In this document: piece after piece, positions 477 through 24,121 of the stretch
How positions within the stretch are numbered: position 1 is the first letter of the stretch
Layout: every line of letters begins with the position of its first letter
From: Promethearchaeati archaeon
GTDB lineage: Archaea; Asgardarchaeota; Heimdallarchaeia; Heimdallarchaeales; Heimdallarchaeaceae
Reading direction: 5' to 3'
Assembly (NCBI GenBank): GCA_013166775.1
Contig: JABLTJ010000039.1
Span: forward strand, 1-25,866
Length of the DNA: 25,866 nt
Translations under genes and position numbers: made by a program
The notes under the pieces: model-generated
Database searches by the model: none
Seen by the model: only the letters and a program-made list of their open reading frames with translations
Told to the model about the DNA's origin: nothing

Positions 477-1640
477 TTAATCACGAATTTTTGTGTCTAC
501 TTCATTATTTAGGAAATCATTGTCAGCTAGATTATATGTTGAGTTATCGATATAGCATCCATATCTATTATTTTTGAATGTATTAGCAAATATATCAACT
601 TCTAATGAGTTGATGATATAAAGCCCATAATTGTTACTATCAAAGAAATTCCAGATAAGATCTATCCTTTTTGAACCTATCACTGTTATTCCTGAATAAT
701 CATCATTCGTAAAAGAATTCCATGAAGCACTGCAATTTGAACAGAATGCAAAATTAATTCCTAGACTACAATTTTCTAGAAAACTATTTTCTACACTTAT
801 GAATGAACAGTTTACAAAATATAGTTGTCCGTAATCTGTTAAATAGTAAGTTTCATTTTTTATATTAGTAAAATATCCAAATTCCTTCCCATTTATAACG
901 TTACTCTCTACAATGTGGGATAGATATGTCTCAAGTTCATAATTCAATATAGTTATCCCTATATTAGATAGATTGTTGTTTTTAATCGTTATATTCCCAG
1001 TTCTAGCGAAGTAAAATCCTCTTTTCCAATAATCTCCCTCTTCAAATCCTTCATCATACATACATCTATTATTCTCAATAACAGCTTTATTTATCTTGAA
1101 CAGAAATATAGCATCTTGTGAAATATTGATAAAAGTATTATTTACTATCGTACACTCAATCCAAGTAGTATAACTGGTAAGAGACATAATACCTATCCCT
1201 GCACCACAATTCCGGAAGGTATTGTTGATTATTTGACAACCAGACGTATCCCAGATTTTTACACCAATTCCATTTTCTCTACCATCGAATGTATTGTTTG
1301 TTATAATTAGTAAATCTGGGGATGAAATAGCTATAAATATTCCATCTCTTGAAGCCTGAAGGTGATTATTTCTTATAATGAAGCTTTTGGATACATTACC
1401 AATTGCTATTGCATAAAAATCATCTGTTTTTATCTCATAATTCTCAATAATGAATGGATCTTCAGTAGTTCCTGAACCTAGAAAATTATATTTCAGAAAA
1501 TCTCCATCGGATTGGATTAGTATCGGCTTATGCTTTCTCCTTACAATAATAGTGGGAATGACAATTGACAAAATAATCATTACTACTAAGAAGCTGAAGA
1601 GAAATACTTTTCTCACACTATAAGTTCTCAAATAACTCAT
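477..1640 (-). CDS. Right-handed parallel beta-helix (NosD/pectin-lyase-like) repeat protein with N-terminal membrane anchor
   Basis: N-terminal hydrophobic helix followed by RRKHK; GSGTTEDPFIIENYEI motif; repeated I.NNTF/GI.I beta-helix units. Confidence 0.88.
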   Translation of the reverse strand: MSYLRTYSVRKVFLFSFLVVMIILSIVIPTIIVRRKHKPILIQSDGDFLKYNFLGSGTTEDPFIIENYEIKTDDFYAIAIGNVSKSFIIRNNHLQASRDGIFIAISSPDLLIITNNTFDGRENGIGVKIWDTSGCQIINNTFRNCGAGIGIMSLTSYTTWIECTIVNNTFINISQDAIFLFKINKAVIENNRCMYDEGFEEGDYWKRGFYFARTGNITIKNNNLSNIGITILNYELETYLSHIVESNVINGKEFGYFTNIKNETYYLTDYGQLYFVNCSFISVENSFLENCSLGINFAFCSNCSASWNSFTNDDYSGITVIGSKRIDLIWNFFDSNNYGLYIINSLEVDIFANTFKNNRYGCYIDNSTYNLADNDFLNNEVDTKIRD

Positions 1641-1833
1641 TCCTACTTCCTATTTTCGGATTTAATTCTTCTCCTCTGTTGTTTGAATTTAATAAAATAT
1701 CCCTTTAAATCTCTTTCTAGTAAAAATTGTTGAAAATTTGTCATAAAATTACAATTTTAAGACTTTCTTTTAGTCCTTTTAAGAATATAGAATCTTTTTC
1801 TTTCTATGGCAAAAAAATGAATAGAAAAGAAGA

Positions 1834-2778
1834 TTATCTTCTTCTTCTCCAACCAAAAATAACAACTGTACTTACTAAAATTCCACCAAGTCCAAAAATC
1901 CAAGAATTTGTAACAGTTAAGCTCTCATCATAAGAATCTATAGAATATTCTAAGATAGTCTTTATCTTTAATTCAAATCTATTATCAATTTTTTCGTAAA
2001 ATTTGTACTGGCTGTAATAGTCATAAAGTTCTCCTTGTTTATTATAAGAAAACTTCGTTTCTATTTCCTCTTTATAATGCGACTCATCAACCCATTCCCA
2101 TTCATAATTATACGAAAATTCATAATGATATCCCTCGAAGTTCTTTCTTTGATACTTGAATGTATTTAGAAAACTAATTTTGAAATCTTTGTAATATTGT
2201 TCATATTCTTGAAAATTTGTTTTAAAGGAAAAATCTGGGTGATAAATAGGTAGAAATGTAAAACCCACTCCCCCATACCAGCCAAAAAGATAAAAACTAA
2301 TATCTACTGGATCAAAAGGAATGGGCATTCCAAATCCAAAAGGTATTGATTGAGATTGCACTGGATCTACAAACTGTAGCTTCTGGTTTTCATTATTGTA
2401 TCTATAGGTAACTTTGAAGCTATCTGTTGCAGCATTATACTCCCAAGCATTACGATATTCATCATAGCATTCCTCACTTTCACAATTAACTAAACCTAAG
2501 AAAATCTCCCATTGATCTGTTCTGAAAGATATGTTGTTATTTTCGCATTCCACATCCCACATCTTTACTTCTTTGTTTATCTCAGTTAATGGATCTTCCT
2601 TTTCATAGTCATAGTGTTTTAAATCATAAATATACGTATAGGAATCTCTTAAGGTTCCCCAACATTGTACTTCTTGTGTTGTTTCGGAATTAATAGAAAA
2701 TGATCCACACAACAAAACTAAGACAAATCCACTTAATAAAATACTCTGATAAGACTTCCCAAACTTCATGAGACTCAA
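1834..2778 (-). CDS. Uncharacterised secreted/surface protein with C-terminal TM anchor; paralogue of 20820..21761 (start may be ATG 2769)
   Basis: Signal-like N-terminus, NCESEECYDEY motif shared with the paralogue, C-terminal WIFGLGGILVSTVVIFGWRRRR. Confidence 0.85.
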   Translation of the reverse strand: MSLMKFGKSYQSILLSGFVLVLLCGSFSINSETTQEVQCWGTLRDSYTYIYDLKHYDYEKEDPLTEINKEVKMWDVECENNNISFRTDQWEIFLGLVNCESEECYDEYRNAWEYNAATDSFKVTYRYNNENQKLQFVDPVQSQSIPFGFGMPIPFDPVDISFYLFGWYGGVGFTFLPIYHPDFSFKTNFQEYEQYYKDFKISFLNTFKYQRKNFEGYHYEFSYNYEWEWVDESHYKEEIETKFSYNKQGELYDYYSQYKFYEKIDNRFELKIKTILEYSIDSYDESLTVTNSWIFGLGGILVSTVVIFGWRRRR

Positions 2779-2879
2779 CTAGAAAATTACACCCCCCTAT
2801 ATTTATAGTTTGGCAAATCATAAAATTAAGTGATACCTCAACCTTAGGACTTTTTTTTATTCCTTTTAAAAATTCGATA

Positions 2880-3009
2880 CTATCTTTTCTTGCGATTAAT
2901 TTGTGTAATAATAACTCCTATTATTATAGCTAGTAGCAAAAATCATGAAGTTCTTTCAGTTTCCCATCCACTTATTTCTAATATTTCTACAACATCGCTC
3001 TCATCTGCA
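2880..3009 (-). pseudogene. 3' remnant of an LVIVD-repeat surface protein gene (paralogue of 9382..10479)
   Basis: Translates ADESDVVEILEISGWETERTS*FLLLAIIIGVIITQINRKKR* versus ADENDAIEILEISGWNPKRTSGFLLPIVIITIIITQMRKKKEKT* in the intact gene; GGA>TGA internal stop. Confidence 0.88.
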
Positions 3010-3086
3010 CTTCTAGAATAACTAATATACAATTATAAATATTAATTAGAGTACTATCAGTTATATTGATGCTTTTAAATAGGAAA

Positions 3087-3212
3087 TTACTTAATTAATG
3101 TGATAAACATAACAGATATCAATGTAAGAATAGTCAGAACAAGCTGAACTCCCAATCTGATAGATCCAATATAGAAGGTTGCATTAGAGGGGAATACATG
3201 TGTTTTTTCCAT
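3087..3212 (-). pseudogene. 41-codon hydrophobic ORF or 3' remnant of a membrane-anchored protein
   Basis: MEKTHVFPSNATFYIGSIRLGVQLVLTILTLISVMFITLIK*; ends in a TM-like helix; parent gene unknown. Confidence 0.3.
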
Positions 3213-3314
3213 TGATAAACTTATCTTAGAAGTCTTAAAATTGCATTTATCTACTTTCTAACAAAGTGGTTCTTAGAAGTAAGGAAGAAGAAATCAGCTT
3301 ATTTGGCTTCAATC

Positions 3315-4232: not shown

Positions 4233-4336
4233 AATTCACACCTTTGAGCTATGTAGGAACTGCAAGAAAACAGTATTTAAAGTTAAGAGAAAGACGGTTA
4301 TATGATTTTTACAAGCAATCATTTTCTTACCTAAAA

Positions 4337-6202: not shown

Positions 6203-6263
6203 GACAAATACCTATCTTGTAGCACTTATATAGATATGGAATTGAAGAACCAGTAGTTTCCTT

Positions 6264-6322
6264 TTATTCAAATATCTTGAAATACCACTTGCATTTACAG
6301 TACTCTTCAAAACCTGTCTTTT
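6264..6322 (-). pseudogene. Probable 3' remnant of a GNAT acetyltransferase gene
   Basis: IYKKTGFEEYCKCKWYFKIFE* resembles the terminal (L/I)YxKxGF motif of GNATs. Confidence 0.5.
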
Positions 6323-6388
6323 TGTAGATATACTAATCTCAAATCATTGAACACGTGAAAAATTGGACAGATAGTGTTTGAACTTGAT

Positions 6389-6520
6389 AGAACTTTTATT
6401 CTTTTTTATCTTGAGTTTCTCCGTTCTGTGAGTTTATCTTTCCAGTAAATTTTCCAGGATTAACACCGACTAATATTGAGAGAATGTGTTTACTGATTGG
6501 TTTAGGAAGTAATTTTAACA
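6389..6520 (-). repeat. 132-bp direct repeat copy 1; 3' remnant of an unidentified gene
   Basis: Aligns without gaps to 7806..7937 with about 20 mismatches (manual count); reads LKLLPKPISKHILSILVGVNPGKFTGKINSQNGETQDKKE*. Confidence 0.9.
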
Positions 6521-6595
6521 GATTGTTGCCTTCTTGTATGTTGTGAATGATTTTTTGCAGAAGAATGTAAAGATATGAATGGTCGAGTAATTATG

Positions 6596-7805: not shown

Positions 7806-7937
7806 AGAACTTTTATTCTTTTTTATCCTGCTTTTCTCCATTCTGTGAGTTTATCTTTCCTATAAATTTTCCCGGATCAACACCCGCTAATGTAGCGAGA
7901 ATATGCTTACTGAATGGTTTTGAAAGCACTTTTAACA
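7806..7937 (-). repeat. 132-bp direct repeat copy 2; 3' remnant of the same unidentified gene family
   Basis: Reads LKVLSKPFSKHILATLAGVDPGKFIGKINSQNGEKQDKKE*; about half of the mismatches to copy 1 are at minus-strand third codon positions. Confidence 0.9.
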
Positions 7938-7966
7938 CTTTGTCTATTTTATCCTCTTGTTCCTCT

Positions 7967-8779
7967 TCACTCATTTTCCTTCTCCTTCATGTTAATTCTC
8001 CTCTTTATCAAGAAGAACAGCACAATTGTAAGTATTGTAAAAACAGCACAACCAATTCCTAGTGCTAACCATGGTGCTGGCTTGAAAGAGAATGTTATAA
8101 CGCCTAGACATGCTATGGCTCCAATACTGGTAATTGACAGAATGAAATATCTCCCCCTGTTTGGAGATCGGATAAGGAACCACTCTCGTCCTAGAAACAA
8201 GAATAAGGATAGACCCACTTTATGTAATTTCAGTTTCATAATTATTCTAATAAAGTATACAAGAGATACTATGAACAGTAGTAGACCAATAGCAAGAACA
8301 ATACCTCCTATCCAAACAACGTTGTCCCCTATCTTTTCATGAAGCATCCTTGTTATCATATTTAGCTTAACTATTCCGAAGACGCCAATAAAAGAAATGA
8401 CCATAGCTAAGAGCATACCCATTTGACTAATGAATAGGTTCAACTCAGATGCTGGTTGAATTGCTAATACAGCGGAGAACACACCAAATCTGTCAGCTCG
8501 TGCTTCTTCCTTAGTTTCTCTAGCTATCTCATCAACAAAAATCAAAGCTTTCTTTCCAGCATCTGTGATGGTATAATCCCCATTAGTTCTCTCTATCAAT
8601 CCTGCCTCATTCAGTTCTTTCAGGTGGTAATTGAAAGTACCACTCATGGATTGATCAAAACCTAATACCTCCATTAATTCAGTATAAGTAGCACTGCCTT
8701 TCTCAGAGATGTGATTCATCATTTCTCTACGTTTTGAGCTTGACAAGGCTTTCATAACGTTTTCAGATTCAGAACTCAT
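7967..8779 (-). CDS. Membrane-tethered ArsR-like winged-helix transcriptional regulator (about 4 TM helices)
   Basis: KALSSSKRREMM..ATYTELM..SGTFNYHLKEL..GLI..YTITDAG wHTH followed by four hydrophobic segments; ATG 8779 preferred over TTG 8785. Confidence 0.88.
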   Translation of the reverse strand: MSSESENVMKALSSSKRREMMNHISEKGSATYTELMEVLGFDQSMSGTFNYHLKELNEAGLIERTNGDYTITDAGKKALIFVDEIARETKEEARADRFGVFSAVLAIQPASELNLFISQMGMLLAMVISFIGVFGIVKLNMITRMLHEKIGDNVVWIGGIVLAIGLLLFIVSLVYFIRIIMKLKLHKVGLSLFLFLGREWFLIRSPNRGRYFILSITSIGAIACLGVITFSFKPAPWLALGIGCAVFTILTIVLFFLIKRRINMKEKENE

Positions 8780-8802
8780 TTGCAATATGTTTTTATCACG
8801 GG

Positions 8803-8839
8803 ACTATTTAAGGCATTTCGACTAATTTTTTCGTGTAGA
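8803..8839 (-). promoter_or_regulatory. Promoter/operator copy 1 (TATA box plus imperfect palindrome)
   Basis: actatttaaggcatttcgactaattttttcgtgtaga, 35/37 identical to 9271..9307; minus-strand TTAAATA about 27 nt before the ATG; tttcgac...gtagaaa inverted repeat. Confidence 0.8.
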
Positions 8840-8887
8840 AAATTAAGGTAAGTAAATAAAAAAAAAATCCTTCCCTCCTTACTGGAT

Positions 8888-9250
8888 TCATTCAATAATT
8901 TCTTCATATATGATGAATCGTTTACTTATGTTGAAATATAACATTATACTCATCCCTACTACAAATACACCTAAGAGTAACCAAAGGTAATAAGATTCAA
9001 AGATATCAGGTACTGCAAGTCCTATTATAGCTCCAATAGTAATTGGTACTCCTGTTACAAAGAACATTATTGAATAGTATTTCGATAATTTTTTTCTTTC
9101 TGCACTTTTCATGTTTTTTCTGATTGATTTATGAAACCACTCATATCTAGCTAGTAAGATACTAGGTTGTCCAAATATCATTAAAACACCAAGCACACTT
9201 AAAACGATCCCAGCAATTAAGTAAATGTATGTTATCTCCAATTTTTTCAC
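8888..9250 (-). CDS. Small 3-TM membrane protein (DUF3784-like)
   Basis: Three hydrophobic helices with a basic loop (LLARYEWF...ERKKLSKYY); GTG start; family assignment tentative. Confidence 0.7.
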   Translation of the reverse strand: MKKLEITYIYLIAGIVLSVLGVLMIFGQPSILLARYEWFHKSIRKNMKSAERKKLSKYYSIMFFVTGVPITIGAIIGLAVPDIFESYYLWLLLGVFVVGMSIMLYFNISKRFIIYEEIIE

Positions 9251-9270
9251 TAAGAATTGTTGATTACTAT

Positions 9271-9307
9271 ACTATTTAAGACATTTCGACTAACTTTTTC
9301 GTGTAGA
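9271..9307 (-). promoter_or_regulatory. Promoter/operator copy 2
   Basis: actatttaagacatttcgactaactttttcgtgtaga; TTAAATA about 24 nt before GTG 9250. Confidence 0.8.
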
Positions 9308-9381
9308 CGATTTTAGCATTAACGAGATTTTTCGTTCTTGTGATAATATATAGTTTTCACATATTGGTTCAAGGAAAACTG

Positions 9382-10479
9382 TTAGGTTTTCTCCTTCTTC
9401 TTCCTCATCTGTGTAATAATTATTGTTATTATTACGATTGGTAACAAAAATCCAGAAGTTCTTTTTGGATTCCAACCACTTATTTCTAATATTTCTATCG
9501 CATCGTTTTCATCTGCAACAAATAATAGATTGTCTTTCAATACAAAGCTGTATGAAGATCCACCATCGTAGAAACTAGCTACTTCTACGGGATTGGTTTT
9601 GTTGGTAATATCTAATATCTTCATCCCAGCAATATCATTGGATATAATCAAGATGTCTTCTTCTACATGTAAGCGCCAGATACTATTTCCATTCTCGTAT
9701 GTATATACTTCCACTGGATTAGCTATATCGCTAAAATCTATAATCATAAATCCATTATTTGCTAGTGCATAAAATGCCAGATCGTTTTCTACATAGATAT
9801 CATAAACATATATCTCTTCACTAGAATTGTACTCACTGATTAATTCTGGATTACTAGGGTTACTAATATCATATACACGAAAATGGGTTTGAGTTTGAGA
9901 TAAACTTCTTACACCAAAGTAAGCGAAATCACCACTGATAAAAGGTTTAGCTCCTTGTCCTTTACAGAATTCTTTTACTTTCTCTGGCTGGGTGGGATCA
10001 CTTATATCAATGATTTCATAAAATGAATCACTTGTATTGTGTTTACTTGCATAGATATAATCCTCAACTACTTTAACATGAGAAATCGAATCTGAAACAT
10101 ATTCACTGATTTTCGTAGGATTGGAAGGATTTGAAATATCAACTATTTCCATTCCATACTCCCAAGTACTCAAGTAAGCAATGTCTTCTTGGATTTCAAA
10201 ATCGTGTCCATCAGTTACAGAGTAGTTAGCTAGTGATATAGGTCTTGTTGGATCTTGCACATCTAATGAACAAAATCTCTTTGTGTCATATTCAGTAAAG
10301 TATACTATTTCATCTTTTACATCTACATGATAATACAACGCTCCTGTGGTAAATTCACCAATCTTTGTTATAGTTATATCTTGATAATCAGCTGAAGCAG
10401 AATTAACTAATAAATTGTAGCAACATAAGACATACAACAAAACAACAAAATATCCTTTACTTTTCACATTCCTTTTCAT
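9382..10479 (-). CDS. LVIVD-repeat (beta-propeller-like) surface protein with signal peptide and C-terminal TM anchor
   Basis: Repeated GMEIVDISNPSNP / IIDISDPTQP / VYDISNPSNP / ILDITNKTNP units; C-terminal TSGFLLPIVIITIIITQMRKKK. Confidence 0.92.
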   Translation of the reverse strand: MKRNVKSKGYFVVLLYVLCCYNLLVNSASADYQDITITKIGEFTTGALYYHVDVKDEIVYFTEYDTKRFCSLDVQDPTRPISLANYSVTDGHDFEIQEDIAYLSTWEYGMEIVDISNPSNPTKISEYVSDSISHVKVVEDYIYASKHNTSDSFYEIIDISDPTQPEKVKEFCKGQGAKPFISGDFAYFGVRSLSQTQTHFRVYDISNPSNPELISEYNSSEEIYVYDIYVENDLAFYALANNGFMIIDFSDIANPVEVYTYENGNSIWRLHVEEDILIISNDIAGMKILDITNKTNPVEVASFYDGGSSYSFVLKDNLLFVADENDAIEILEISGWNPKRTSGFLLPIVIITIIITQMRKKKEKT

Positions 10480-10650
10480 TCTTGATAAATTACCAAGAAC
10501 ACTTATTAATTATACAGTTGAGAAAGATTTCAAATCTTTACCCAACTAGAAGTAATAACCTATCCGATAAAAATCATCGCATTTTTTTTAATTTCTATGG
10601 GATATTTTGTGATGCCTCAAAATTGAAAAGAGGTGACTATTGTTCGCTGC

Positions 10651-10761
10651 TATGAGTTCATTGCTTTTTGCATGAAAGAAGGAATAGCTGTAGAGCTAAT
10701 TAATAGAGTTATCATAGAAAACCAAAGTAGAACACTTTCAATCAAACACATCAAGAAGTAA
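10651..10761 (+). pseudogene. 3' remnant of a phosphotriesterase-like gene (paralogue of 19454..20407)
   Basis: YEFIAFCMKEGIAVELINRVIIENQSRTLSIKHIKK* versus NEFIPFCEKEGIDTELINKVIIENSKRALSIKHINK*. Confidence 0.88.
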
Positions 10762-11039
10762 AAATCTTAATCCTTCATAGGTAATGGTCAATTAGGCTGT
10801 GCAATAGTTAAGCAACTTATTCTGAAGGGAACCTTCGTTAGAGCTTTGGATTTAGATGAATATGAAGATGAAGAATCTGTTGAAATCATTGTTGGTGATT
10901 TGTGTGACGAAAAATTATGACTGATGCTTTCAAAGATATTGACACTGTTTCAAATACTGCATCTGTTGTATATGACTCTTCACCGCCAGATTGGCTTCTT
11001 TATAATGTGAATACTGATGGTAATCGCAATGTCATATAA
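10762..11039 (+). pseudogene. 5' remnant of an NAD-dependent epimerase/dehydratase (extended SDR, 3-beta-HSD-like) gene
   Basis: KILI/GNGQLGCAIVKQLILKGTFVRALDL..VEIIVGDLCDEK/MTDAFKDIDTVSNTASVV..LYNVNTDGNRNVI*; frameshifted, truncated, no start codon. Confidence 0.82.
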
Positions 11040-11158
11040 TAGAAATGGAATATCTAGATCAAGAAGGTGTTTCTGTTAGATAACTAATTATTATAACATC
11101 TATTTAGATTGAAGAGGGAAAAAGTTTTATTTGTTATATACAATTTTATTCGATTCAC

Positions 11159-11923
11159 ATGAACAAGAAACTTATCTTTTGTATTTCATTCTTCTCAATT
11201 TTATTTTTTAGTCAAATGAATATTCAAGCTAATATCGATAGCGATAGCGTGATATTTTCTGAATCAATAAGCGAAAATACTACTTTTGAATGGACAGTTG
11301 AAAAATTTGATGTAAAACTGAGACCAACACCCGAAACTTATACTTTTTTCAAAGAAGGTGATACTATTAAAGCGAAAATAATTGCAGAGCCACCTGCTGA
11401 TTTAGAAAGTTGGAAATCTTATGTACCACGTGCAAATTTCAGTGATTGGATACAATTTTACAAAAATGATGTGATTTTTGAAATTGATATGGCAGGGAAT
11501 CTTTCCTTTCTCTTCAAATATGGTTTTATATATCCTATCTCTTGGGTTGAAGATAATTCTACAATCAGTTACTTCGAGCAATATGCTAATGCAGCTGAAG
11601 CTGCTTTTGCTTTTTCTCTAATGGATTTTAAATTGACCACAGACTTAGGTAAAGATCACTTCAAAGTAAAATACGATTTTACCTGCAAAAGATGTCTCGG
11701 TAAAACCTTAAACTACAGAATATATAATATACACACAGGAATTATAAGTAGATATCAATACATGTATAATAACGAGTACAATGATCATTATGAAATTATA
11801 ATCTCAAATCCAGAAGACAAAGTGGATTCTTACTCTCTAGTAATTCCGATAGTTACTCTCCTAGTAATTGTTACTGTTCGCTTCGTAAGAAGAAATCGGA
11901 AAAAATATTCAACAACCAGATAA
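11159..11923 (+). CDS. Uncharacterised secreted/surface protein with C-terminal TM anchor
   Basis: Signal peptide MNKKLIFCISFFSILFF; C-terminal SYSLVIPIVTLLVIVTVRFVRRNRKK. Confidence 0.85.
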   Translation: MNKKLIFCISFFSILFFSQMNIQANIDSDSVIFSESISENTTFEWTVEKFDVKLRPTPETYTFFKEGDTIKAKIIAEPPADLESWKSYVPRANFSDWIQFYKNDVIFEIDMAGNLSFLFKYGFIYPISWVEDNSTISYFEQYANAAEAAFAFSLMDFKLTTDLGKDHFKVKYDFTCKRCLGKTLNYRIYNIHTGIISRYQYMYNNEYNDHYEIIISNPEDKVDSYSLVIPIVTLLVIVTVRFVRRNRKKYSTTR

Positions 11924-11984: not shown

Positions 11985-12141
11985 CTAGTCACGAATATCA
12001 GTGTCTTCATCGTTATTTAGAAAATCATTGTCAGCTAGATTATATGTTGAGTTGTCGATATAACATCCATATCTATTATTTTTGAATGTAGTAATATATA
12101 TCAACATCTAGATGAGAATATAATTACTATCAATGAATTCC
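11985..12141 (-). pseudogene. 3' remnant of the beta-helix gene family (copy 2)
   Basis: TFKNNRYGCYIDNSTYNLADNDFLNNDEDTDIRD*; about 11 mismatches over the first 105 nt versus 477..581, mostly at third codon positions, then decays with deletions. Confidence 0.92.
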
Positions 12142-12240
12142 CTGAACTACTCCAATATATCTAGTAATCTATATCTATAACCTGTAAACTACTTTTTCAG
12201 AGAGAGTTCTCTTTTTATTTCAGTAAGATAGCAAGAACTG

Positions 12241-13025: not shown

Positions 13026-13796
13026 TCATTGATTTTCAAGAAATTCTAGTACATGTGGAAGAACCACTCCTGGAATGAATTGTACTTCATGTCCTTTATT
13101 CTCAAAAAGAATCGCTTTTGCATTTTTCATTTCTTTACTTACTTCCGCAAGATGGGGGTAGGGATTCCATTCATCTTTTTCTCCTGCATAAAATAGAAAT
13201 GGTTCTTTAAGCTCTGGAAGGTGTTCATCTACTTTATGGAACAGATCCAAGCTGTTTATCCATGCGTTTATCGCTTCAAAGTCCATTGCTCTAAAACGTT
13301 TCTCAGTGTCAGGAGTCACCTCTTCTCCCTTCTCTTTCACATGAGCGATTAGACCATCAGCTCCATCTTTGAGTTTTTCTTTAGCATTTTTTAGATTTTC
13401 TTTTGTTTCCTTTGTTAATCCTCTAGGTTGCATTCCACCAATTATGTAACTATGGAAACGTTCGGGATAATCTCTTGAAAGACAAAATGCTATGTAACCG
13501 CCATATGAATATCCCCAACAATGTGCTTTATCTATCTTCAGCTCATCTAAAACTGCGATGATATCTGATGTAAATATCTTTGTCAAATATGATTCCGAAT
13601 CATGAGGTTTGTCACTCTGTCCATTTCCTCTGAGATCTATTAAAATAAGTTGATAGTCCTCCATTAAAGTTTGAATATGATCACAAGCATACCACTCTAA
13701 GTGACTTCCAGGACCACCATGTAACAAAACTAAAGGTGTTCCATGCCCTTCAACCTTATAAAAAATCTTAACTCCTTGATTATTTACAAATGGCAT
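13026..13796 (-). CDS. Alpha/beta fold hydrolase; paralogue of 5438..6202
   Basis: HGGPG, DLRGNGQSDKP, GYSYG, GEKD and GH motifs. Confidence 0.95.
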   Translation of the reverse strand: MPFVNNQGVKIFYKVEGHGTPLVLLHGGPGSHLEWYACDHIQTLMEDYQLILIDLRGNGQSDKPHDSESYLTKIFTSDIIAVLDELKIDKAHCWGYSYGGYIAFCLSRDYPERFHSYIIGGMQPRGLTKETKENLKNAKEKLKDGADGLIAHVKEKGEEVTPDTEKRFRAMDFEAINAWINSLDLFHKVDEHLPELKEPFLFYAGEKDEWNPYPHLAEVSKEMKNAKAILFENKGHEVQFIPGVVLPHVLEFLENQ

Positions 13797-13909
13797 AAGA
13801 AATAAAGAAGAACAGTCCCTCTTAAATGTAATTAATCACAAAATCAATGCCTTTGACTGTCTTCATATTGAAGTTAACATAGTATTTACAAACATATATA
13901 ACTGTCTGA

Positions 13910-15886
13910 ATGTATCCTACTGATGGTATAATGAAAAGAAATTCTCTTCTTCTTATGTTTGTTCTTAGTTTAATATCCGTTTCATTCCTTTCTTCTTCCA
14001 ATGTTAATAATATTGACAATTCAATTAGTAATGATTTTGTTCCTCATACGAATTCCTTTTCTCCAAAACTCGCTGGAAATCCTCATAATGAAACAGAATT
14101 ACAATTGTTTTTTGACGACCTATTAGAAAATCAATTGATTGATTATACACTTCCTGGTATCACTTTATCAGTTGTTAATGCTACAGATATATTGTACCTC
14201 AAAGGATATGGTTATGCAAACATAGAGGAATCTAAAGCTGTTTCTCCTACTTCCACAATGTTTCGAATAGCATCAACTTCTAAACTCTTTACTTGGACAG
14301 CAGTTATGCAGCTCTATGAACAGAGTCTTCTCGATCTTGATGAGAATATTAACAACTATCTTACAGAATTCAAAATCCCAATGAAATATGGCCCCATAAC
14401 TATGTATGATCTTATGAGTCATAGTCCTGGTTTTGAAGATTATTTCTTTCTAACCGGATCGATAAACAAAAAGATAACACTCTCTTTAGAAGATTACCTC
14501 ATAGAGTACATGCCTAAATGTGTTCGGTCACCAGGAGAAGTTTCTTCTTATTCCAATTATGGTGTTTCTCTAGCTGGATATATTGTTGGGGAAATATCAG
14601 GAAAACCTTTTCCTCAATATGTAGAAGAAGAAATATTAATCCCTCTTGGAATGGATTATTCAACATTTTTAAACTCTCTTCCTTCAGTTTTGGAAGAAAA
14701 CCTTGTTACAGAGTATTCGATAGATAAACAATCAAATTTGCTTCCTGCAACATCACTCGATCCGTATAATTTAGAATATGATCCAGCAGGATCATTGAAA
14801 ACAACAGCACTTGATATTAGTTATTTTATGCGCGCTCATCTTAATAATGGAAGTTTTGGTTCTAACCGTATACTAGAGGAAGCAACAGTTCAAGAAATGC
14901 ACAATCGTCATTTCTCACATCATCCAAATCTTGATGGATTCGCTCATGGATTTTTTGAGTTAACGATAAATGGCAAAAGAATATTGACGCATGGTGGATC
15001 TGTTTCATATACACGTTCAGAATTAATGCTTATTCCTGAAGAACAAATAGGATTCTTTATCAGTTATAATGCTTATCACATCGATCCTGTATATACTGTA
15101 TTTTACGAATTCATGGACCATTTCTATCCTGGTGTTCCTGTTTCGAGGTTGGAACCTGATCCCAATTTCAAGCAAACTGGAAAGAAATTTACTGGTAATT
15201 TCAGATATACTCGTGGTCCTTATAATACCCCCGCAGTGATTAATTATCTTATAGAATACAAACATGTAAGTATTGATAAAGAAGGATATCTAGTTGTTTC
15301 AGGATTTAAATATGTGCAAGTAGAAGAGTTACTATTCCGAGAACCGGAGTATGATTTCTACTTAGCGTTTAAAGAGGATGCTGAAGGAAAGATTACTCAC
15401 ATGTTTTATAGTCATGTTTCAGCGAATGCATTAGAGAAATTAACTGGAGCTGATAATCCTCCTATTGCTTGGAGTATTTGTATAACTATTGTTGTCATTA
15501 TATTAGCTTCATTGATTTATATTCCAATAAGAAGGAAGATTAAGAGAGAAGAAAAATATATTCCAGATACAGAAATTGAGAGATATACAAAACTCGCTAC
15601 TCAATATACTGGATGGGGAATCATTGGTTTTGTAGTCCTGTATGGAGGATTTTCTGTAATACTATTAGTATCAGAGGCTGTTTTCCCAGTTACTAGAGCT
15701 CTTCTTGTTATACCTTATATTTTAGTATTCAGTCTTCTAGTTCTGATTGGTTTAACGGCATTTCTTTGGATAAATAAGCAAGGATCAATTAATATCCGAG
15801 TAAACGCTACTATAATAGCTATCGTAGCAATTGTTTTCATGTGGTGGATGGTTCATTGGCGCTTGATAGGATTTTTCTATGCCTAA
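13910..15886 (+). CDS. Beta-lactamase-related (class C/PBP-like) serine hydrolase with signal peptide and C-terminal TM helices (start may be 13931)
   Basis: FRIASTSK (SxxK), YSN, LMSHSPG and HGG motifs; about four C-terminal TM segments. Confidence 0.93.
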   Translation: MYPTDGIMKRNSLLLMFVLSLISVSFLSSSNVNNIDNSISNDFVPHTNSFSPKLAGNPHNETELQLFFDDLLENQLIDYTLPGITLSVVNATDILYLKGYGYANIEESKAVSPTSTMFRIASTSKLFTWTAVMQLYEQSLLDLDENINNYLTEFKIPMKYGPITMYDLMSHSPGFEDYFFLTGSINKKITLSLEDYLIEYMPKCVRSPGEVSSYSNYGVSLAGYIVGEISGKPFPQYVEEEILIPLGMDYSTFLNSLPSVLEENLVTEYSIDKQSNLLPATSLDPYNLEYDPAGSLKTTALDISYFMRAHLNNGSFGSNRILEEATVQEMHNRHFSHHPNLDGFAHGFFELTINGKRILTHGGSVSYTRSELMLIPEEQIGFFISYNAYHIDPVYTVFYEFMDHFYPGVPVSRLEPDPNFKQTGKKFTGNFRYTRGPYNTPAVINYLIEYKHVSIDKEGYLVVSGFKYVQVEELLFREPEYDFYLAFKEDAEGKITHMFYSHVSANALEKLTGADNPPIAWSICITIVVIILASLIYIPIRRKIKREEKYIPDTEIERYTKLATQYTGWGIIGFVVLYGGFSVILLVSEAVFPVTRALLVIPYILVFSLLVLIGLTAFLWINKQGSINIRVNATIIAIVAIVFMWWMVHWRLIGFFYA

Positions 15887-16312: not shown

Positions 16313-16765
16313 TTAAATCTCACTTAACTTTCCCATGTTTTCTATTTTGTCATACTTTTTCCTTTTCGATTTGAAGTGAACAATGATTGAAGCATCATTC
16401 AGAAATTTGTTAGAATCAATCAAATCCCTCTCAGCATACTTTAGGATCTTAAAAACAAGAGGTAAATGACTCCTTATTATATTATTTCTGAATTTAGCTC
16501 CACCCAAAATACATCCTCCTGAGATGTGAGTATAGATGTGTAATTCATACTTGTCGTTTTTTCCCTTCCATTCAGCAAGTACTTCATCTCTCATAAATCG
16601 TACATAAAGTTTATTCAGTTTCTTGTAATCGTAATCATTACCTATAGAAAGGAAAAGTTCTCCAGTAAAATCTGAGTGTGTAAGTGTATATTTTCTGGAA
16701 AGAATATCAAGATTCTCTGAATGAAGATACTTCACGCTCAGCTTGTTTGGATTGAAATTTACCAT
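16313..16765 (-). CDS. Stay-green (SGR) family protein, Mg-dechelatase homologue
   Basis: FNPNKLSV, RKYTLTHSDFTGELFLSIG, MRDEVLAEW, LHIYTHISGG and IIVHF motifs; start at ATG 16765 by alignment with the second copy. Confidence 0.9.
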   Translation of the reverse strand: MVNFNPNKLSVKYLHSENLDILSRKYTLTHSDFTGELFLSIGNDYDYKKLNKLYVRFMRDEVLAEWKGKNDKYELHIYTHISGGCILGGAKFRNNIIRSHLPLVFKILKYAERDLIDSNKFLNDASIIVHFKSKRKKYDKIENMGKLSEI

Positions 16766-16884
16766 TTTAATATTAATATAAATAGCAAAATAAAAATTTA
16801 ACTGATGAATATTTTCAATCAAATTTTTTATAGTACCATTTGAATTTACAATATTCTTCAAATCCTATTTTTCTATAATATTAT

Positions 16885-17061
16885 CTAATCACAAATATTT
16901 GTATCTTGATAATTTTCTAAGAAATCATTATCAATTAGATTATATGTTGAGTTAGAAATATAACAACCACACCTGCAATTCTTGAATGTATTGTCAGCTA
17001 TATCTATATCTATTGAGTCAATTATATAAACTCCATAAAAATTTCTATCAAAGAAATTCCA
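16885..17061 (-). pseudogene. 3' remnant of the beta-helix gene family (copy 3)
   Basis: WNFFDRNFYGVYIIDSIDIDIADNTFKNCRCGCYISNSTYNLIDNDFLENYQDTNICD* aligns gap-free with the C-terminus of 477..1640. Confidence 0.92.
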
Positions 17062-17303
17062 ACATAATCTACTTTTTGAACAGGATCAGCAGAAGGAATA
17101 TTCATACTAAAAGTCTTATTTTGATGAATACCTTGATTTGTAAAATTAGATTGCTTCGAAGAAATGTAGACAATAGCTGGATTTCGAGAAATAATTCCAC
17201 TATATTCTATAACATTGAAATTAGGTTTACCATCAACATTAGCTCCTACTAAAACAACAGGAAGGGGAGTAGGATAAACTTTGGGAGAGTATATTTTTTT
17301 GAA
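17054..17303 (-). pseudogene. 5' remnant of a flavin reductase (flavoredoxin-like) gene, fused to the beta-helix remnant
   Basis: FKKIYSPKVYPTPLPVVLVGANVDGKPNFNVIEYSGIISRNPAIVYISSKQSNFTNQGIHQNKTFSMNIPSADPVQKVDYVGI; no in-frame start; C-terminal half missing. Confidence 0.85.
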
Positions 17304-17364
17304 CTGAAAGGAAATACATTCCGGTATTTATTTTTGTTTGAACTACTCTAAAATTAAACAAAAC

Positions 17365-18195
17365 CTACACTTTAGAACTCATTAATTCCTTTTGTACTTT
17401 TTTTCTTTTATATTTTATAAATGATTGAGTTATGAAACTTTTGTAAAATCTTACAAGCAAACGATTTTTTAGTCCTGGAATCACAATTACCTTATTTTTC
17501 TCTAGTTTTGCTAAGGAAGTTGAAACTACGTCAGTTGCATACAGCCACAATTTTTTTGGAATGACTGAAGAATCAAAGTTAGAAAAATGTCCAACATGAT
17601 GAAATTCAGTTTTGGTAAAACCCGGACATAAAGCTTGAACAATTATATTCGTTTTTTCCAACTCTAAATTTATATGCTCAGAAAAAGTAACAAGGAACGA
17701 TTTAGTAGCACTGTATATCGAATTTCCCTTAGTTGTAACAAGTGCACCTTGTGAAGCTACATTAATGATGATACCTCGGTTTTGCTCTTGCATTTTTGGT
17801 ATCAAAAAATAGCATAATGATACTGCTGCATTAATATGAAGATTAATCATCTGAGAATGAGTTTCTAAAGACACTGATGAAAATTCTCCTAAAGTAGCAA
17901 AACCTGCACAATTGATTAAAATATCAATAGGAGCTATCTTTAGAATTTCTTGACATACTCTCTGAACTTCCTCAATTTTAGATAAATCTGCTGAAATAAA
18001 AGTTGCAGAAATATCATAAGCATTTGATAATTCCTGACATGTTTCTTCCAATCTATCTTTTCTACGAGCTATTAGAATCAAATTTATTTTCTTTGTAGCA
18101 AGTTGTTTTGCATATTCTAATCCTATACCACTTGATGCTCCAGTTATAACAGCATTTTTACAATTTTGGAGAACAGAGAAATTCTTATCATTCAT
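17365..18195 (-). CDS. Classical short-chain dehydrogenase/reductase
   Basis: TGASSGIG, ARR (NADP-type), INCAG, YSATK and LCPGFTKTEF motifs; ATG 18195 preferred over 18243. Confidence 0.95.
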   Translation of the reverse strand: MNDKNFSVLQNCKNAVITGASSGIGLEYAKQLATKKINLILIARRKDRLEETCQELSNAYDISATFISADLSKIEEVQRVCQEILKIAPIDILINCAGFATLGEFSSVSLETHSQMINLHINAAVSLCYFLIPKMQEQNRGIIINVASQGALVTTKGNSIYSATKSFLVTFSEHINLELEKTNIIVQALCPGFTKTEFHHVGHFSNFDSSVIPKKLWLYATDVVSTSLAKLEKNKVIVIPGLKNRLLVRFYKSFITQSFIKYKRKKVQKELMSSKV

Positions 18196-18281: not shown

Positions 18282-19238
18282 TTATTTTTTCCTTTTTCTG
18301 CTCATGATAATTGGTGTGGCAATAAGAATAGTACTAAGTAAGACTAAGGATGGAACTGAATATTCTGATATGAGTGGAATAATACCAACAACTTTTGTTG
18401 CATTGAAATAATAGTAAAGATCTGCTGTAGAATTGTATTCAATCCAATGTAAGACAATACCAGTTTGCTTTTCGTAAAAAAAGGTTGTTTCACCTATTGT
18501 GTATGGTTCTGGAGATCCTAATCCTGAAATGTCAACCATTATCACTGCTTCTTCATGATGCACCTCAATAACTTCATATTTTTCTGTCTCACTGATTTCA
18601 TATTCCTTGAATCCCATAACTTCTCCTGTATATGTACCGTAGTCAATCTCTTGACCTATTGTTGCTTGAGGAGAAATTGCATATCTAGTTAAAGGCATTA
18701 GTTGCAGTTCAAAAGCATTTCCAAGTACAAAACTTAAATACCAAATACTAATATTTGAGTATAATTCTGACTCAGTGTCTATGTCTATTAAAGTGTAATT
18801 CACTCCATGATATGTGACTATTAGATCTTCCTCTGCAATGTCCATTGAATCTGTTATGTTGAGGAAGAATAATACTGCGTCTTCTACAGTCTCTGTGTAA
18901 AATCTGGAAGCTGGTAAGAGTACTGTTCTATTATCTTCCATAATTAAAGAAGTTACAATTTGTCTCTTAACATAATAGGGTGGGTTAGGTGGTGTATCTG
19001 TCATATTTCTAATCATTTCTACTAGATTTTCATCAGTGAAAGGGTCATACCAAATCTTGTCTATACCAAACTCCATTGTCCCAGAAATTTCATATTGATT
19101 AAGGTCTCCAGATACACTTATTCCTTCAGTAAGTTCGAGCAGATTAGGTGCTGTTTCGCTTCTCACAGTTAGTGACGTAAGTAAGAATACTATGAATATT
19201 AATACCAAAACTTTATTGTGCTTATTCATAGGCATCAA
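18282..19238 (-). CDS. Acidic secreted/surface protein with a PEF-CTERM-like C-terminal anchor
   Basis: Signal peptide; C-terminus PLISEYSVPSLVLLSTILIATPIIMSRKRKK. Confidence 0.85.
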   Translation of the reverse strand: MMPMNKHNKVLVLIFIVFLLTSLTVRSETAPNLLELTEGISVSGDLNQYEISGTMEFGIDKIWYDPFTDENLVEMIRNMTDTPPNPPYYVKRQIVTSLIMEDNRTVLLPASRFYTETVEDAVLFFLNITDSMDIAEEDLIVTYHGVNYTLIDIDTESELYSNISIWYLSFVLGNAFELQLMPLTRYAISPQATIGQEIDYGTYTGEVMGFKEYEISETEKYEVIEVHHEEAVIMVDISGLGSPEPYTIGETTFFYEKQTGIVLHWIEYNSTADLYYYFNATKVVGIIPLISEYSVPSLVLLSTILIATPIIMSRKRKK

Positions 19239-20407: not shown

Positions 20408-20507
20408 TTAAAATGAGAAAATCAAGAATAGAATAAGCTTTTTTACATTTCTAACCAATAAGTCCGGTAATTTTCTATATTTGGATAATAAAGTGGGTTG
20501 TTCCAAC

Positions 20508-20690
20508 TTACTGACTGAATTGTAAAGAATACAACTGATGGAATTTTCCGTTTTTCTTGAGTAATTCTCGAAACGTTCCTTCTTCGATAATTTTTCCAGC
20601 TTCTAGGACAATTATTCGATTCACATTTTTAATTGTACTTAATCTATGAGCAATAATTATTGTAATTCTGTTTTCTATCATCTTATTAAG
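20508..20690 (-). pseudogene. 3' remnant of an ABC exporter (MsbA-like) ATP-binding domain
   Basis: LNKMIENRITIIIAHRLSTIKNVNRIIVLEAGKIIEEGTFRELLKKNGKFHQLYSLQFSQ*; only the H-loop region, with no Walker motifs. Confidence 0.92.
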
Positions 20691-20698
20691 TGATTATT

Positions 20699-20767
20699 TT
20701 GAAAGAGTATGATTTAATTGTAATTGGAACAGGTTCTGCAATGAATACTCCTTATTTAATGAATTAA
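20699..20767 (+). pseudogene. 5' remnant of a pyridine nucleotide-disulfide oxidoreductase (dihydrolipoyl dehydrogenase-like) gene
   Basis: TTG start: MKEYDLIVIGTGSAMN, then unrelated sequence and a stop. Confidence 0.7.
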
Positions 20768-20819
20768 TTTTGTCATGCTGTAAAAAAATCTTTTTCTTCG
20801 ATTTCTTTGATATATTTTT

Positions 20820-21761
20820 CTATCTTTTTGATAGGTATATCCGATAGCTAATTGCAATAAACACTAATCCCACAAATCCAAATATCCATTGTAGACTTAC
20901 AGCTAATTCCTCATCTATCTCATCAATTGTATAAGTCATTTCGTGATTCAAGTAAAGTTTGTATTTACCATTAACTTCTCTATATTCCTCATTTTTTCCT
21001 TCATAATTGTAGAGGACTCCCTGATTGTTGTATTGAAATAAAGCTTTGTTGAAGATTTTCTTTCCTGGAAAATCAACTATCTCGATAAAGAATGTATATT
21101 CGTAATTGTAGGAATATCCCTCAAATTTCTTCCTTTGCATTCTAAAACTATTTTTAAATTCAAGTTCAAAATCAGTATAGATTAATTCATAAACTGTATA
21201 ATTTGTTTCGAAACTGAAACTGGGCGATAAAACTGGAAGGAATAAACATCCTATATAGTCCCACATACCCATTGGCATAGGAAGATCGATTGGATCTATT
21301 GGAATATTTGCTTCGAATCCTAGAAACTCGTTGTTTCTTGGGTCAACAAATCCTACTTTTTGTTCGGTATCATTGTAAACATATGTCGCTTTAACACTCT
21401 CTGTTTCATCATCATACTCGAGGGCTTCTAAAAATTCATCATAACATTCTTCACTCTCACAATGAATATAACCAAGAAATGTCACCCATTTTGTAGTCCT
21501 AAAGGTTATGATATTTTCATTACTTACCACATCCCAAATCATTACTTCTTCTGTTGTTGTATTCGAATATTCCAATCCACCACTACCTTCAATATCATAT
21601 CTAGTTCTTTCAGAAACCTGAGAATATGTATATGTGTCTCTAGATATTCCCCAATAATTTTCTGCTTGTGATGTGAATGATAAAGGACAAAAGACTAATA
21701 GCAGCATCAAAGAAATAAAAATTAGTTTGTTTTGTTTTTTCCTAACTCCTCTTTTTAGCAT
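20820..21761 (-). CDS. Uncharacterised secreted/surface protein with C-terminal TM anchor; paralogue of 1834..2778
   Basis: Signal peptide; RDTYTY, IWDV, ITFRT, HCESEECYDEF, FVDP, QRKKFEGY, YNNQGVLY and WIFG shared with the paralogue. Confidence 0.87.
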   Translation of the reverse strand: MLKRGVRKKQNKLIFISLMLLLVFCPLSFTSQAENYWGISRDTYTYSQVSERTRYDIEGSGGLEYSNTTTEEVMIWDVVSNENIITFRTTKWVTFLGYIHCESEECYDEFLEALEYDDETESVKATYVYNDTEQKVGFVDPRNNEFLGFEANIPIDPIDLPMPMGMWDYIGCLFLPVLSPSFSFETNYTVYELIYTDFELEFKNSFRMQRKKFEGYSYNYEYTFFIEIVDFPGKKIFNKALFQYNNQGVLYNYEGKNEEYREVNGKYKLYLNHEMTYTIDEIDEELAVSLQWIFGFVGLVFIAISYRIYLSKR

Positions 21762-21919
21762 TGGTTATCAAAGAAATAATTCTATAACCTTCTATATATA
21801 CATTACTAAGTTATTTAATCTGGATTAGTAAAAGATCCTAGGAACCTATTAAGATATTTCATCTGTAGCTCCTACATATTGCTTAAATAGATTAGACTAA
21901 TTATGCTATCTTATAATGT

Positions 21920-22145
21920 CAAATAATGAATTCTCTCAAATCGGTATTCATGGAAGGAACAGAAACATTCACTATAAAATTGAAACTTAATCCAACAGTT
22001 GCTAATCATTCTATGTTTAGGTTAGCTATGTTGAAAGGAATGTTATAGTTTTCAGCTTTTGATAGAGAACAAATAAAAATCTGTTTGACTACAAATAATA
22101 TTATGCTTTTCATGATCAATATAGAAACTTTCTTTTCTCTTTCAC
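21920..22145 (-). pseudogene. Probable decayed 5' part of a secreted protein gene
   Basis: GTG overlapping the GNAT stop (TAGTG): MKEKRKFL/LIMKSIILFVVKQIFICSLSKAENYNIPFNIANLNIE*LATVGLSFNFIVNVS; one frameshift and internal stops. Confidence 0.4.
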
Positions 22146-23176: not shown

Positions 23177-23208
23177 TTGATTTATTCTGTTTTTTAAGTT
23201 CTATAAAT

Positions 23209-23523
23209 TTATCTAAGCATTCTCTCTAATTTGAAAATCACTGGTCTTATACTATCTGGATAAACTCCATAGATAGTATTCTCTCCTGTCCAATCTTGAT
23301 ACCTTCCTCCAAATCTAAGAAATTCAACACTCTTGTATATACCATACCAAGCATGATAACAGAATCCCTCAGGCATGTCACCTGTCTCTTTCACTTCAAA
23401 TTCTTGATTTTCCTTCATGAAGCTTTTAGTTATTGGCTTTCCTGACTCACGAATAAAATCTTCTCCAATGATATCTTTGGGCTCAAATTGCTTTACTACT
23501 GTAACTTTTACATTATATGACAT
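23209..23523 (-). CDS. TIGR04076-family protein
   Basis: VKVTVVK, MPEGFCYHAW and RPVIFKLER motifs; GGAGGA lies just upstream of ATG 23523, favouring it over 23538. Confidence 0.8.
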   Translation of the reverse strand: MSYNVKVTVVKQFEPKDIIGEDFIRESGKPITKSFMKENQEFEVKETGDMPEGFCYHAWYGIYKSVEFLRFGGRYQDWTGENTIYGVYPDSIRPVIFKLERMLR

Positions 23524-23669
23524 AATATTCTCCTCCATAAATTACTGCTATTTATCTTCAAAATATACTGTTTTTAGCAGTTAGAAATTACCTGATGCCC
23601 TTATAAGATTACCTTAAAATAAATTATAGTGGAATTAGAAATGATGAGCGTTAGAATTACTTAAGTAGA

Positions 23670-24121
23670 TTAAATCGATTTTATTTTTCCCATATTTTCT
23701 ATCTTATCGTATTTTTTCTTTTTTGATTGAAAGTGAACAATTATTGAAGCTTCCTCTAAAAATTTGTTAGAATCAATCAAATCTCTTTCCGCATATTTCA
23801 GAAGTTCAAAAACAAGTTGTAAATAACTTCTTATTATAGCATCTCTGAATTTCGCACTACCAAAAACGAATCCACCAGAAATATGAGTATAAATGTGTAA
23901 TTCATACTTTTCATTATTTCTTTTCCATTCAGCAAGAACCTCGTCTCTCATTAAACGTACATAGAATTTTTCAGTTTCTGATAATCATAATCTTTATCGA
24001 TGGATAGAAAAAGTTCTCCAGTAAAATCTGAATGTGTAAGTGTATACTTTCTGGAAAGTAAGTCAATATCACCTGAATAAAGATATTTTACTTGTAATTT
24101 ATTAGGATTGAAATTAACCAT
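23670..24121 (-). pseudogene. Second Stay-green family gene with a 1-nt frameshift
   Basis: Colinear with 16313..16765 from MVNFNPNKLQV to the stop, but 452 rather than 453 nt; the frame breaks at the T5 run 23967-23971. The ORF track shows only the C-terminal 93 aa. Confidence 0.88.

Follow-up and report, generated by a model that had tools for sequence, protein, structure and literature searches.

Contig C19 of an uncultured Heimdall-group (Asgard) archaeon (JABLTJ010000039.1), which at 25,866 bases is in its entirety the window analyzed here, carries single intact accessory genes separated by the stumps of other genes. The genes belong to about 20 lineage-specific families, mostly membrane-anchored surface proteins and hydrolases, and we consider it probable that they form a flexible genomic island shaped by segmental duplication with intragenic breakpoints, trimming deletions, and ectopic gene conversion. 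The genome (G000) is a short-read metagenome-assembled genome (MAG) of 3.85 Mb in 115 contigs, with about 32% GC, a completeness of 89%, and a contamination of 4.5%; below, C plus a number denotes a contig, G001 to G036 denote relatives of the same genus, and L plus a number denotes a fetched locus. The initial annotation, made from the letters alone, had proposed a recombinase-free gene-capture or turnover locus, built either from pieces that each carry a whole gene plus the edges of its neighbors or by serial deletions that spare gene ends. Both proposed origins find direct support in the present analysis; nothing in it points to a dedicated capture system.

Three processes would together generate such an island. 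If local direct segmental duplications have their end points within genes, each copy would consist of a whole gene plus a neighbor's edge. Deletions of redundant or unneeded genes would stop short of the retained neighbors, and the remnants would later be trimmed to about 60 to 300 nt. Ectopic gene conversion between dispersed copies would then find in the stumps its outer limit of homology. All three would be general, recombinase-independent processes that are unusually frequent at C19. The order of events is something that we infer, and likewise the joining would be of a microhomology type and selection on the neighbors would set where deletions stop.

Remnants were examined by six-frame translation of every spacer and by three further tests: tblastn of all genome open reading frames (ORFs) of at least 90 aa against the gene-masked genome, tblastn of ORFs from the relatives' fetched loci against the masked window, and Pfam searches with the stump peptides. 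At least 12 gene remnants lie between 23 intact genes, which is about one remnant per 2 kb over 24 kb (Table 1). They derive from at least eight different genes, with no one site recurring among them. The 3' and 5' remnants listed at the outset are all supported by translation and similarity searches, except for an unknown gene at 7806 to which we return below, and three more came to light: a second GNAT tail, a short beta-helix remnant next to the first GNAT tail, and a frameshifted second copy of the Staygreen gene. The LVIVD stump is a direct repeat of the 3' end of the intact gene at 9407-9517 (111 nt, 78% nucleotide identity). GNAT tail A is 84% identical at the nucleotide level to the 3' end of the intact GNAT264 gene of G005, the parent family being GNAT by Pfam. 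The flavin reductase stump matches an intact 189-aa gene in G003 (72% at the amino acid level), and the counterpart of the dihydrolipoamide-dehydrogenase-like (DLDH) stump in G013 is an intact 479-aa gene with Pyr_redox_2 and dimerization domains. Near 17070, an out-of-frame fusion links beta-helix stump 3 with the 5' stump of flavin reductase; such a joint, of a flavin reductase head and a beta-helix tail, is the kind made by duplication or deletion between two genes.

Some of these remnants have been copied together with their surroundings. The composite beta-helix|GNAT junction occurs twice, as the segment 6220-6364 upstream of the alpha/beta hydrolase gene ABH1 aligns, through the boundary of the beta-helix stop codon and the GNAT tail, with 16783-16915 upstream of Staygreen; within the 6364-6220/16915-16783 alignment the beta-helix part shows 22 matches in 31 columns (manual count). 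Formed a single time, this composite junction is now found before two different genes. Comparable events are visible elsewhere in the genome, as direct local duplications whose starts lie 85 to 136 nt ahead of a stop codon and which extend into the following gene. On C76, positions 13459-14452 are repeated at 16983-17977 (995 nt, 89%), starting 123 nt before the stop codon, and C102 carries a direct duplication of 320 nt (84%). We considered a site preference behind the clustering of these starts but read it instead as the result of a detection floor and trimming. All eight C19 repeat families are in direct orientation, and among stumps that share a contig with their paralogue, 25 genome-wide are on the same strand and 3 on the opposite one, a bias that local duplication predicts. 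Pieces made of a whole gene plus a neighbor's edge, as first proposed, are exemplified by the GNAT tail and Staygreen on C19, when compared with the intact pair on C2 and in G005, and by the C76 duplication.

Staygreen (Mg-dechelatase family, PF12638) is present in three copies in this genome: an intact gene, a frameshifted copy, and a copy located at the end of a contig (G000:C2:169622-169833); among the other 24 genus genomes the gene is found in two and only a tail in one. The last 315 nt of C2 are at first 99.5% identical to C19 16869-16653 (217 nt), in a tract that begins about 12 nt inside GNAT tail B; beyond it they match the second Staygreen copy (about 24000-23910) at 100% identity, and the change from one to the other lies within a shared run of about 24 nt. 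Upstream of the point where the near-identity begins, C2 has the intact GNAT gene and C19 has the beta-helix tail. Judged from these alignments, it would be simplest to suppose that the three Staygreen loci have recently exchanged sequence by ectopic gene conversion or crossing-over and that the stump is the edge of homology, although an assembly-graph effect at the contig end could also give this pattern. Purifying selection on the stumps was considered and rejected. The excess of third-position mismatches is weak (P of 0.02 to 0.1 per pair), and that between the two GNAT tails can be put down to gene conversion without invoking function, as tail B is explained by recent conversion from the intact gene.

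For several of the stumps, relatives and in one case another contig of the same genome hold the whole gene in the corresponding place. An intact 264-aa GNAT264 gene directly precedes Staygreen in G005 and on C2, and C19 keeps its last 21 codons. The order in G031 is two successive ABC genes, a gene on the opposite strand, and Z, to which correspond on C19 an ABC tail, the phosphotriesterase-family (PTE) gene on the opposite strand, and Z. The PTE-tail stop codon that abuts the epimerase start on C19 marks the remnant of a former PTE-epimerase operon. G006 has an intact PTE gene followed by an epimerase-like 3' tail, with a second such tail 2.5 kb away (read from the translation), and the remnants in C19 and G006 thus indicate that the PTE-epimerase pair was eroded differently in the two lineages. 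The ABC stump, standing where G031 has the whole pair, and the separate erosion of the PTE-epimerase pair in G000 and G006 bear out the proposal of deletions that spare gene ends. Relatives with identical gene order and whole genes in place of stumps, which had been taken to speak against an unusual locus, are found in part: whole genes do stand there for GNAT264, the ABC pair, and PTE-epimerase, but the gene order is not identical. A further copy of the PTE 3' end was seen at G000:C2:165903-166012 (81% nucleotide identity), where it overlaps the 3' end of a 215-aa ORF (165936-166583, minus strand); this stump may have become the new C terminus of the neighboring gene.

The abundance of stumps on C19 exceeds the genomic background. 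A detector based on self-paralogues found 132 stump loci genome-wide, or 0.34 per 10 kb, against 6 on C19, or 2.3 per 10 kb, which is about seven times the average and the highest value among contigs of at least 20 kb. An equal stump density throughout the genome, named at the outset as something that would refute the initial interpretation, is therefore not what is observed. The non-coding fraction of C19 is 21.5%, compared with a median of 8.7% and a 99th percentile of 18.7% in 480 windows of the same length; C19 ranks second of the 480, and only C52 is higher (26.1%), with ORFs that look like spurious frames over ribosomal RNA. The homologous islands of relatives are 8.5 to 19% non-coding. 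A second stump cluster, at G000:C78:64146-64528, consists of the 3' tails from two genes, one methyltransferase-like and one GNAT, that converge back to back, and the intact copies lie 7 to 8 kb away (71213-73231) as a divergent pair (84% and 75% nucleotide identity).

In several respects C19 resembles the known sequence of segmental duplication, pseudogenization, and trimming. Its repeats are direct, whole-gene paralogue pairs are present (ABH1/ABH2, X1/X2, and the three Staygreen copies), its pieces begin inside the upstream gene, and it contains a fusion of a 5' stump to a 3' stump. On the other hand, one or two simple tandem events do not suffice to produce its present gene order, and a neutral expectation would give longer remnants and fewer 3' ends among them. 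Other observations, too, weigh against the explanation that we prefer. The expectation that each stump and its adjoining gene form a whole-gene adjacency in another genome held for GNAT-Staygreen and ABC-Z; for the LVIVD tail and X1, SDR and flavin reductase, and ABC|DLDH no such adjacency was found in the relatives, and all of the compared genomes are short-read MAGs of different species. Ten of 11 stumps make up at most 30% of the parent gene, which is much shorter than random single deletions would leave, so that repeated trimming and a detection floor are needed as extra assumptions. Moreover, 3' ends outnumber 5' ends genome-wide (63 versus 38), relative to the intact paralogue most 3' stumps are downstream (12 versus 7) and most 5' stumps upstream (5 versus 1), and a purely random process does not predict such polarity. 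Poorly conserved signal-peptide N termini may explain part of the polarity, and together with trimming and a detection floor of about 75 to 90 nt they can account for both length and polarity. The same features are also expected from insertion by a single crossover or by homology-facilitated illegitimate recombination.

This last point leads to an alternative that we regard as unlikely but worth spelling out, in which single genes are shuffled as cassettes without a recombinase of their own. Gene-end stumps of 60 to 180 nt would serve as portable homology arms for homologous recombination by the host. Circles looped out between a stump and an intact end would reinsert wherever the same or a related genome offers a homologous gene end, either in a Campbell-type event or by homology-facilitated illegitimate recombination, so that single genes move and a duplicated 3' end is left behind. 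The fitting layout, in which an intact gene is followed by cargo and then by a 3' copy on the same strand, occurs with LVIVD (cargo of 6.4 kb), with the small gene U and its duplicate around the CAAX protease gene (U2-CAAX-U1), and at about ten further sites in the genome. The recent recombination tract starts inside a stump, and reshuffling in the genus is of single-gene scale. The PTE locus of G006 provides another case. On the reverse strand of L011 (G006:C182, 615-2170), a 1.5-kb segment with an epimerase-like tail, an ABH gene, a small membrane gene, and a spacer lies between the Z-PTE spacer and the PTE start codon, and the first bases of PTE together with a ribosome-binding-site-like prefix are apparently repeated on both sides, as a direct repeat of about 15 to 17 nt (manual count). 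It is on account of this segment, of the LVIVD and U2-CAAX-U1 layouts, and of the stump length and polarity described above that we retain the idea.

Cassette shuffling nevertheless sits poorly with much of C19. The PTE stump and the two beta-helix stumps are found upstream of the intact copy rather than downstream, several stumps occur where relatives have whole genes, and the repeats are 66 to 84% identical, so that none of the events can be shown to be recent. A tandem or segmental duplication with a later deletion results in the same layouts, and neither circles nor a given stump-gene unit recurring in different contexts from species to species have been seen. Known cases of homology-facilitated illegitimate recombination and Campbell-type insertion share with LVIVD and U/CAAX the arrangement of intact gene, insert, and same-strand partial end copy, whereas the repeats on C19 are diverged (78 to 84%), other stumps have the opposite polarity, and no donor or circle is known. 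Integrative elements that target gene 3' ends and duplicate their att site also come to mind, given the direct repeats of 3' ends on C19, but between those repeats (LVIVD, 111 nt, 78%; U, 138 nt, 84%) no recombinase is encoded. If cassette shuffling did operate, stump arrays of the C19 type would document a recombination-based cassette system at work, and Heimdall-group archaea would relocate individual accessory genes from locus to locus and from genome to genome with no dedicated recombinase.

A different concern is that C19 might be, wholly or in part, a chimeric consensus of co-occurring strains or species. The fragmentation, contamination, and incompleteness of this short-read MAG lend the concern some substance, as does the end of C2, whose 100%-identical stretches with two parts of C19 would fit collapsed or branching repeats in the assembly graph, and the homologous regions of relatives are mostly on short contigs. 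Even so, we hold an artifact to be improbable. The longest exact runs common to repeat copies are 8 to 32 nt, which is too short for k-mer-driven chimeric joins, and repeat-induced misassembly was rejected on these grounds. At the stump junctions homology stops abruptly instead of switching inside a shared sequence, and the two copies of the composite junction have diverged by about 25 to 29%. Furthermore, independent MAGs carry stumps of the same families, namely a Staygreen tail in G017, an ABH head in G001 (a 20-contig assembly), and the two epimerase-like tails in G006.

The search for mobile machinery was negative on C19 itself, where no recombinase or transposase is found among the genes. 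Integrase, transposase, and attC sites had all been reported as not visible, which we confirm and, for tyrosine recombinases, can extend to the assembled genome: neither PF00589 nor TIGR02249 has a match in assembled G000 (89% complete), while PF00589 was matched above its cutoff in all 14 control genomes. In the genus, tyrosine recombinases above the family cutoff occur in 12 of 25 genomes, and as none is found in G000 a universal XerA-type recombinase is not evident in this genus; incomplete MAGs may account for part of the missing ones. Two attC-like R''/R' core pairs are present on C19, both at one intragenic site, against 4.2 expected by chance, attC being judged by the core-site pair pattern and inverted repeats rather than by a covariance model. 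Inverted repeats are weak and mostly intragenic, those in the spacers are inconsistent, and Rfam gave no match on the spacers or the U repeat. Motif discovery on the breakpoints, as recommended initially, found no motif above chance in 18 junction windows, the best 6-mer occurring in 6 of them, within the range of random windows. Having neither integrase, attC pairs, recurrent hairpins, nor motif, C19 is not an integron or a CALIN, as clusters of attC sites lacking an integrase are called, and with no breakpoint motif or conserved cassette boundary nothing speaks for a dedicated gene-capture or turnover locus.

There is a superficial likeness to sedentary chromosomal integrons and CALINs, in that unrelated single-gene units, including a toxin-antitoxin pair, are found with no integrase nearby. 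Where those arrays consist of mostly promoterless, co-oriented cassettes of one ORF each, however, C19 has mixed orientations, spacers made of gene remnants, and no attC-like sites, in a genome with no IntI or other tyrosine recombinase match. Integrons have been reported in archaeal MAGs, and other contigs of G000 carry two serine recombinases and about eight TnpB-like genes. It is nonetheless very unlikely, in view of the missing tyrosine recombinase and integron integrase in the assembled genome, the paucity of attC-like pairs, the use of both strands, and the lack of a recurrent hairpin or breakpoint motif, that C19 is a decayed integron-like or other site-specific cassette array whose recombinase is elsewhere or lost. 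Cassette-like arrays, in other words, need not be integrons.

Equally doubtful is the possibility that the beta-helix and LVIVD tails are silent partial-gene cassettes that donate sequence to expressed surface genes and so help to evade viruses, in the manner of pilS or msp2. The beta-helix protein has an N-terminal membrane anchor, which would leave its C-terminal tip distal and exposed, two extra tails are open over 40 to 66 codons, and gene conversion is apparently active in the island. Most stumps, however, come from genes for cytoplasmic enzymes (PTE, GNAT, ABC ATPase, flavin reductase, epimerase, and DLDH), and no variable core between conserved flanks is seen. The partial copies on C19, two beta-helix tails and one LVIVD tail, cover the conserved C terminus, the tail being the most conserved region of the beta-helix protein. 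Finally, 5'-truncated retrocopies, with 3' stumps as cDNA of mRNA 3' ends like eukaryotic processed pseudogenes, could be dismissed almost outright, because, although stop-bearing 3' ends predominate and one composite consists of two 3' ends head to tail, RVT_1 has no match in the assembled genome, stump ends have no A-rich tails or target-site duplications, 5' stumps occur too, and several stumps are in ancestral positions.

An island formed by duplication, trimming deletion, and gene conversion has much in common with the flexible genomic islands, or pangenome plasticity zones, of other genomes, especially those rich in surface proteins. Content varies between relatives at the single-gene scale, and the cargo of C19 is accessory, comprising surface-anchored proteins, hydrolases, and a toxin-antitoxin pair, rich in paralogues, and similar in composition to the genome (GC of 0.315 versus about 0.33). 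Genes on C19 were called by ORF reading and Pfam; they lie on both strands in mixed orientation and are full length by comparison with homologues in relatives. The same families are present in 18 to 24 species of the genus, and every species sampled has them in an order of its own, so that gene content and order vary among close relatives and reshuffling at the single-gene scale is a property of the genus. C19 differs from typical flexible islands in its unusually high density of remnants (at least 12 in 24 kb, 21.5% non-coding), and conserved core flanks could not be shown for it. A korA orthologue is detectable at the nucleotide level in 2 of 24 genus genomes (G036 and G016), where the adjoining genes are different. 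The X, Y, and Z families (1834-2778, 11159-11923, 18282-19238, and 20820-21761) have a signal peptide, a C-terminal transmembrane helix with a basic tail, and no Pfam match; they occur genus-wide, often in tandem, and are seemingly the core cargo of such islands.

The unknown gene that had been listed twice as a stump, at 6389 and 7806, turned out to be two different things. The copy at 7806 (U2) is a real 53-aa gene, as indicated by homologues of exactly 53 aa and by the same operon position elsewhere; the copy at 6389 (U1) is a decaying duplicate that aligns to U2 over nearly its full length, and the two bracket the CAAX protease gene. Homologues of 53 aa with 77 to 79% identity occur in other Heimdallarchaeaceae contigs, and in two of these U overlaps the stop of the DUF7347 gene, as on C19. 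No longer parent protein for U was found, and with near-length searches giving the 53-aa homologues its interpretation as the stump of a longer gene was ruled out; with U as query, no homologue was found in the 24 other genus genomes. A shared RNA fold of the U repeat was likewise discarded, as the two copies fold differently. U belongs to a three-gene module (window 7816-9250) of a DUF3784-like membrane protein, a DUF7347 helix-turn-helix (HTH)-membrane regulator, and the Lys/Glu-rich 53-aa U, which recurs at L063 3788-5162 and L064 575-2009 on other Heimdallarchaeaceae contigs (70 to 78% at the amino acid level). Ahead of two of the module genes lies a 53-nt repeat (copies at 8792-8844 and 9260-9312, 83%). 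Several other Heimdall/Hodarchaeales contigs (L065 to L068) conserve the pairing of a beta-lactamase-fold gene with a CAAX (Rce1-like) protease gene directly behind it. On C19 the CAAX gene stands alone after U2 with no adjoining beta-lactamase gene, and the beta-lactamase remnant expected in the U2-CAAX spacer from the adjacency in relatives was not found there. A 47-nt blastn match of this spacer to an ABH gene of G017 was dropped, being unsupported by alignment to the C19 ABH genes. For annotators, it follows that spacers in these genomes can hold stumps as well as small real genes such as U.

Table 1. Gene remnants, small gene U, and intact genes of contig C19
Feature	Position	Strand	Description
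Island as a whole	477..24121	.	23 intact accessory genes
LVIVD 3' stump	2883..3029	-	About 49 codons, one in-frame stop; 72% aa, E 2e-4
GNAT264-family acetyltransferase tail, copy A	6264..6331	-	Last 21 codons plus stop; upstream of ABH1
Beta-helix 3'-end remnant	6332..6364	-	About 30 nt; abuts GNAT tail A
U1	6399..6560	-	Degenerate duplicate of U; ATG changed to ATC, N terminus diverged; 84% nt over 138 nt
U2	7816..7974	-	Intact, conserved 53-aa gene; overlaps stop of DUF7347 HTH-membrane gene
PTE-family 3' stump	10594..10761	+	One in-frame stop; stop codon directly adjoins epimerase start
NAD-dependent epimerase 5' pseudogene	10762..11050	+	Frameshifts and stops; weak Pfam match, E 0.02-0.1
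Beta-helix (NosD-like) 3' stump 2	11988..12161	-	84% aa over 38 residues, E 1e-12
GNAT264 tail, copy B	16815..16880	-	21 codons plus stop; immediately upstream of Staygreen
Beta-helix 3' stump 3	16886..17085	-	66 codons without stop; 77% nt; NosD 26.3 bits
Flavin reductase 5' stump	17025..17327	-	Residues about 6-91 of about 189; PF01613 27.4 bits; downstream of SDR
ABC-exporter ATPase 3' stump	20511..20720	-	E 1e-13
DLDH-like flavoprotein 5' stump	20689..20764	+	About 21 codons; 90% nt to G013:C64
Staygreen pseudogene (second copy)	23673..24121	-	One frameshift; about 79% nt to intact copy 16316-16765
C19 left end			GmrSD-like gene fragment
C19 right end			korA-like gene
NosD/beta-helix protein with N-terminal anchor			Intact gene
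X1, X2			Intact genes; two copies of an unknown surface family
Y, Z			Intact genes; two more unknown anchored proteins
LVIVD-repeat surface protein	3' end at 9407-9517		Intact gene
Transglutaminase-like protein; ATC-hydrolase-like protein			Intact genes
ABH1, ABH2			Intact genes; two alpha/beta hydrolases
CAAX protease			Intact gene
DUF3784 protein; DUF7347 HTH-membrane protein; small gene U			Intact genes
MNT-HepT pair			Intact; toxin-antitoxin
Beta-lactamase-fold protein; small membrane protein			Intact genes
Staygreen; SDR; PTE			Intact genes
Double GNAT; 109-aa protein			Intact genes

In conclusion, the processes that probably shaped C19 are ordinary ones, and it is their density and legibility in a Heimdall-group archaeon that stand out. 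Prokaryotes usually purge dead DNA fast; C19 is an unusually legible record of the duplication, reshuffling, and loss of accessory genes in a free-living archaeon. The Heimdall host belongs to the Asgard lineage closest to eukaryotes, a lineage in which gene duplication and genome expansion are of special interest, and the island displays duplication with intragenic breakpoints, as well as gene conversion, at nucleotide resolution.

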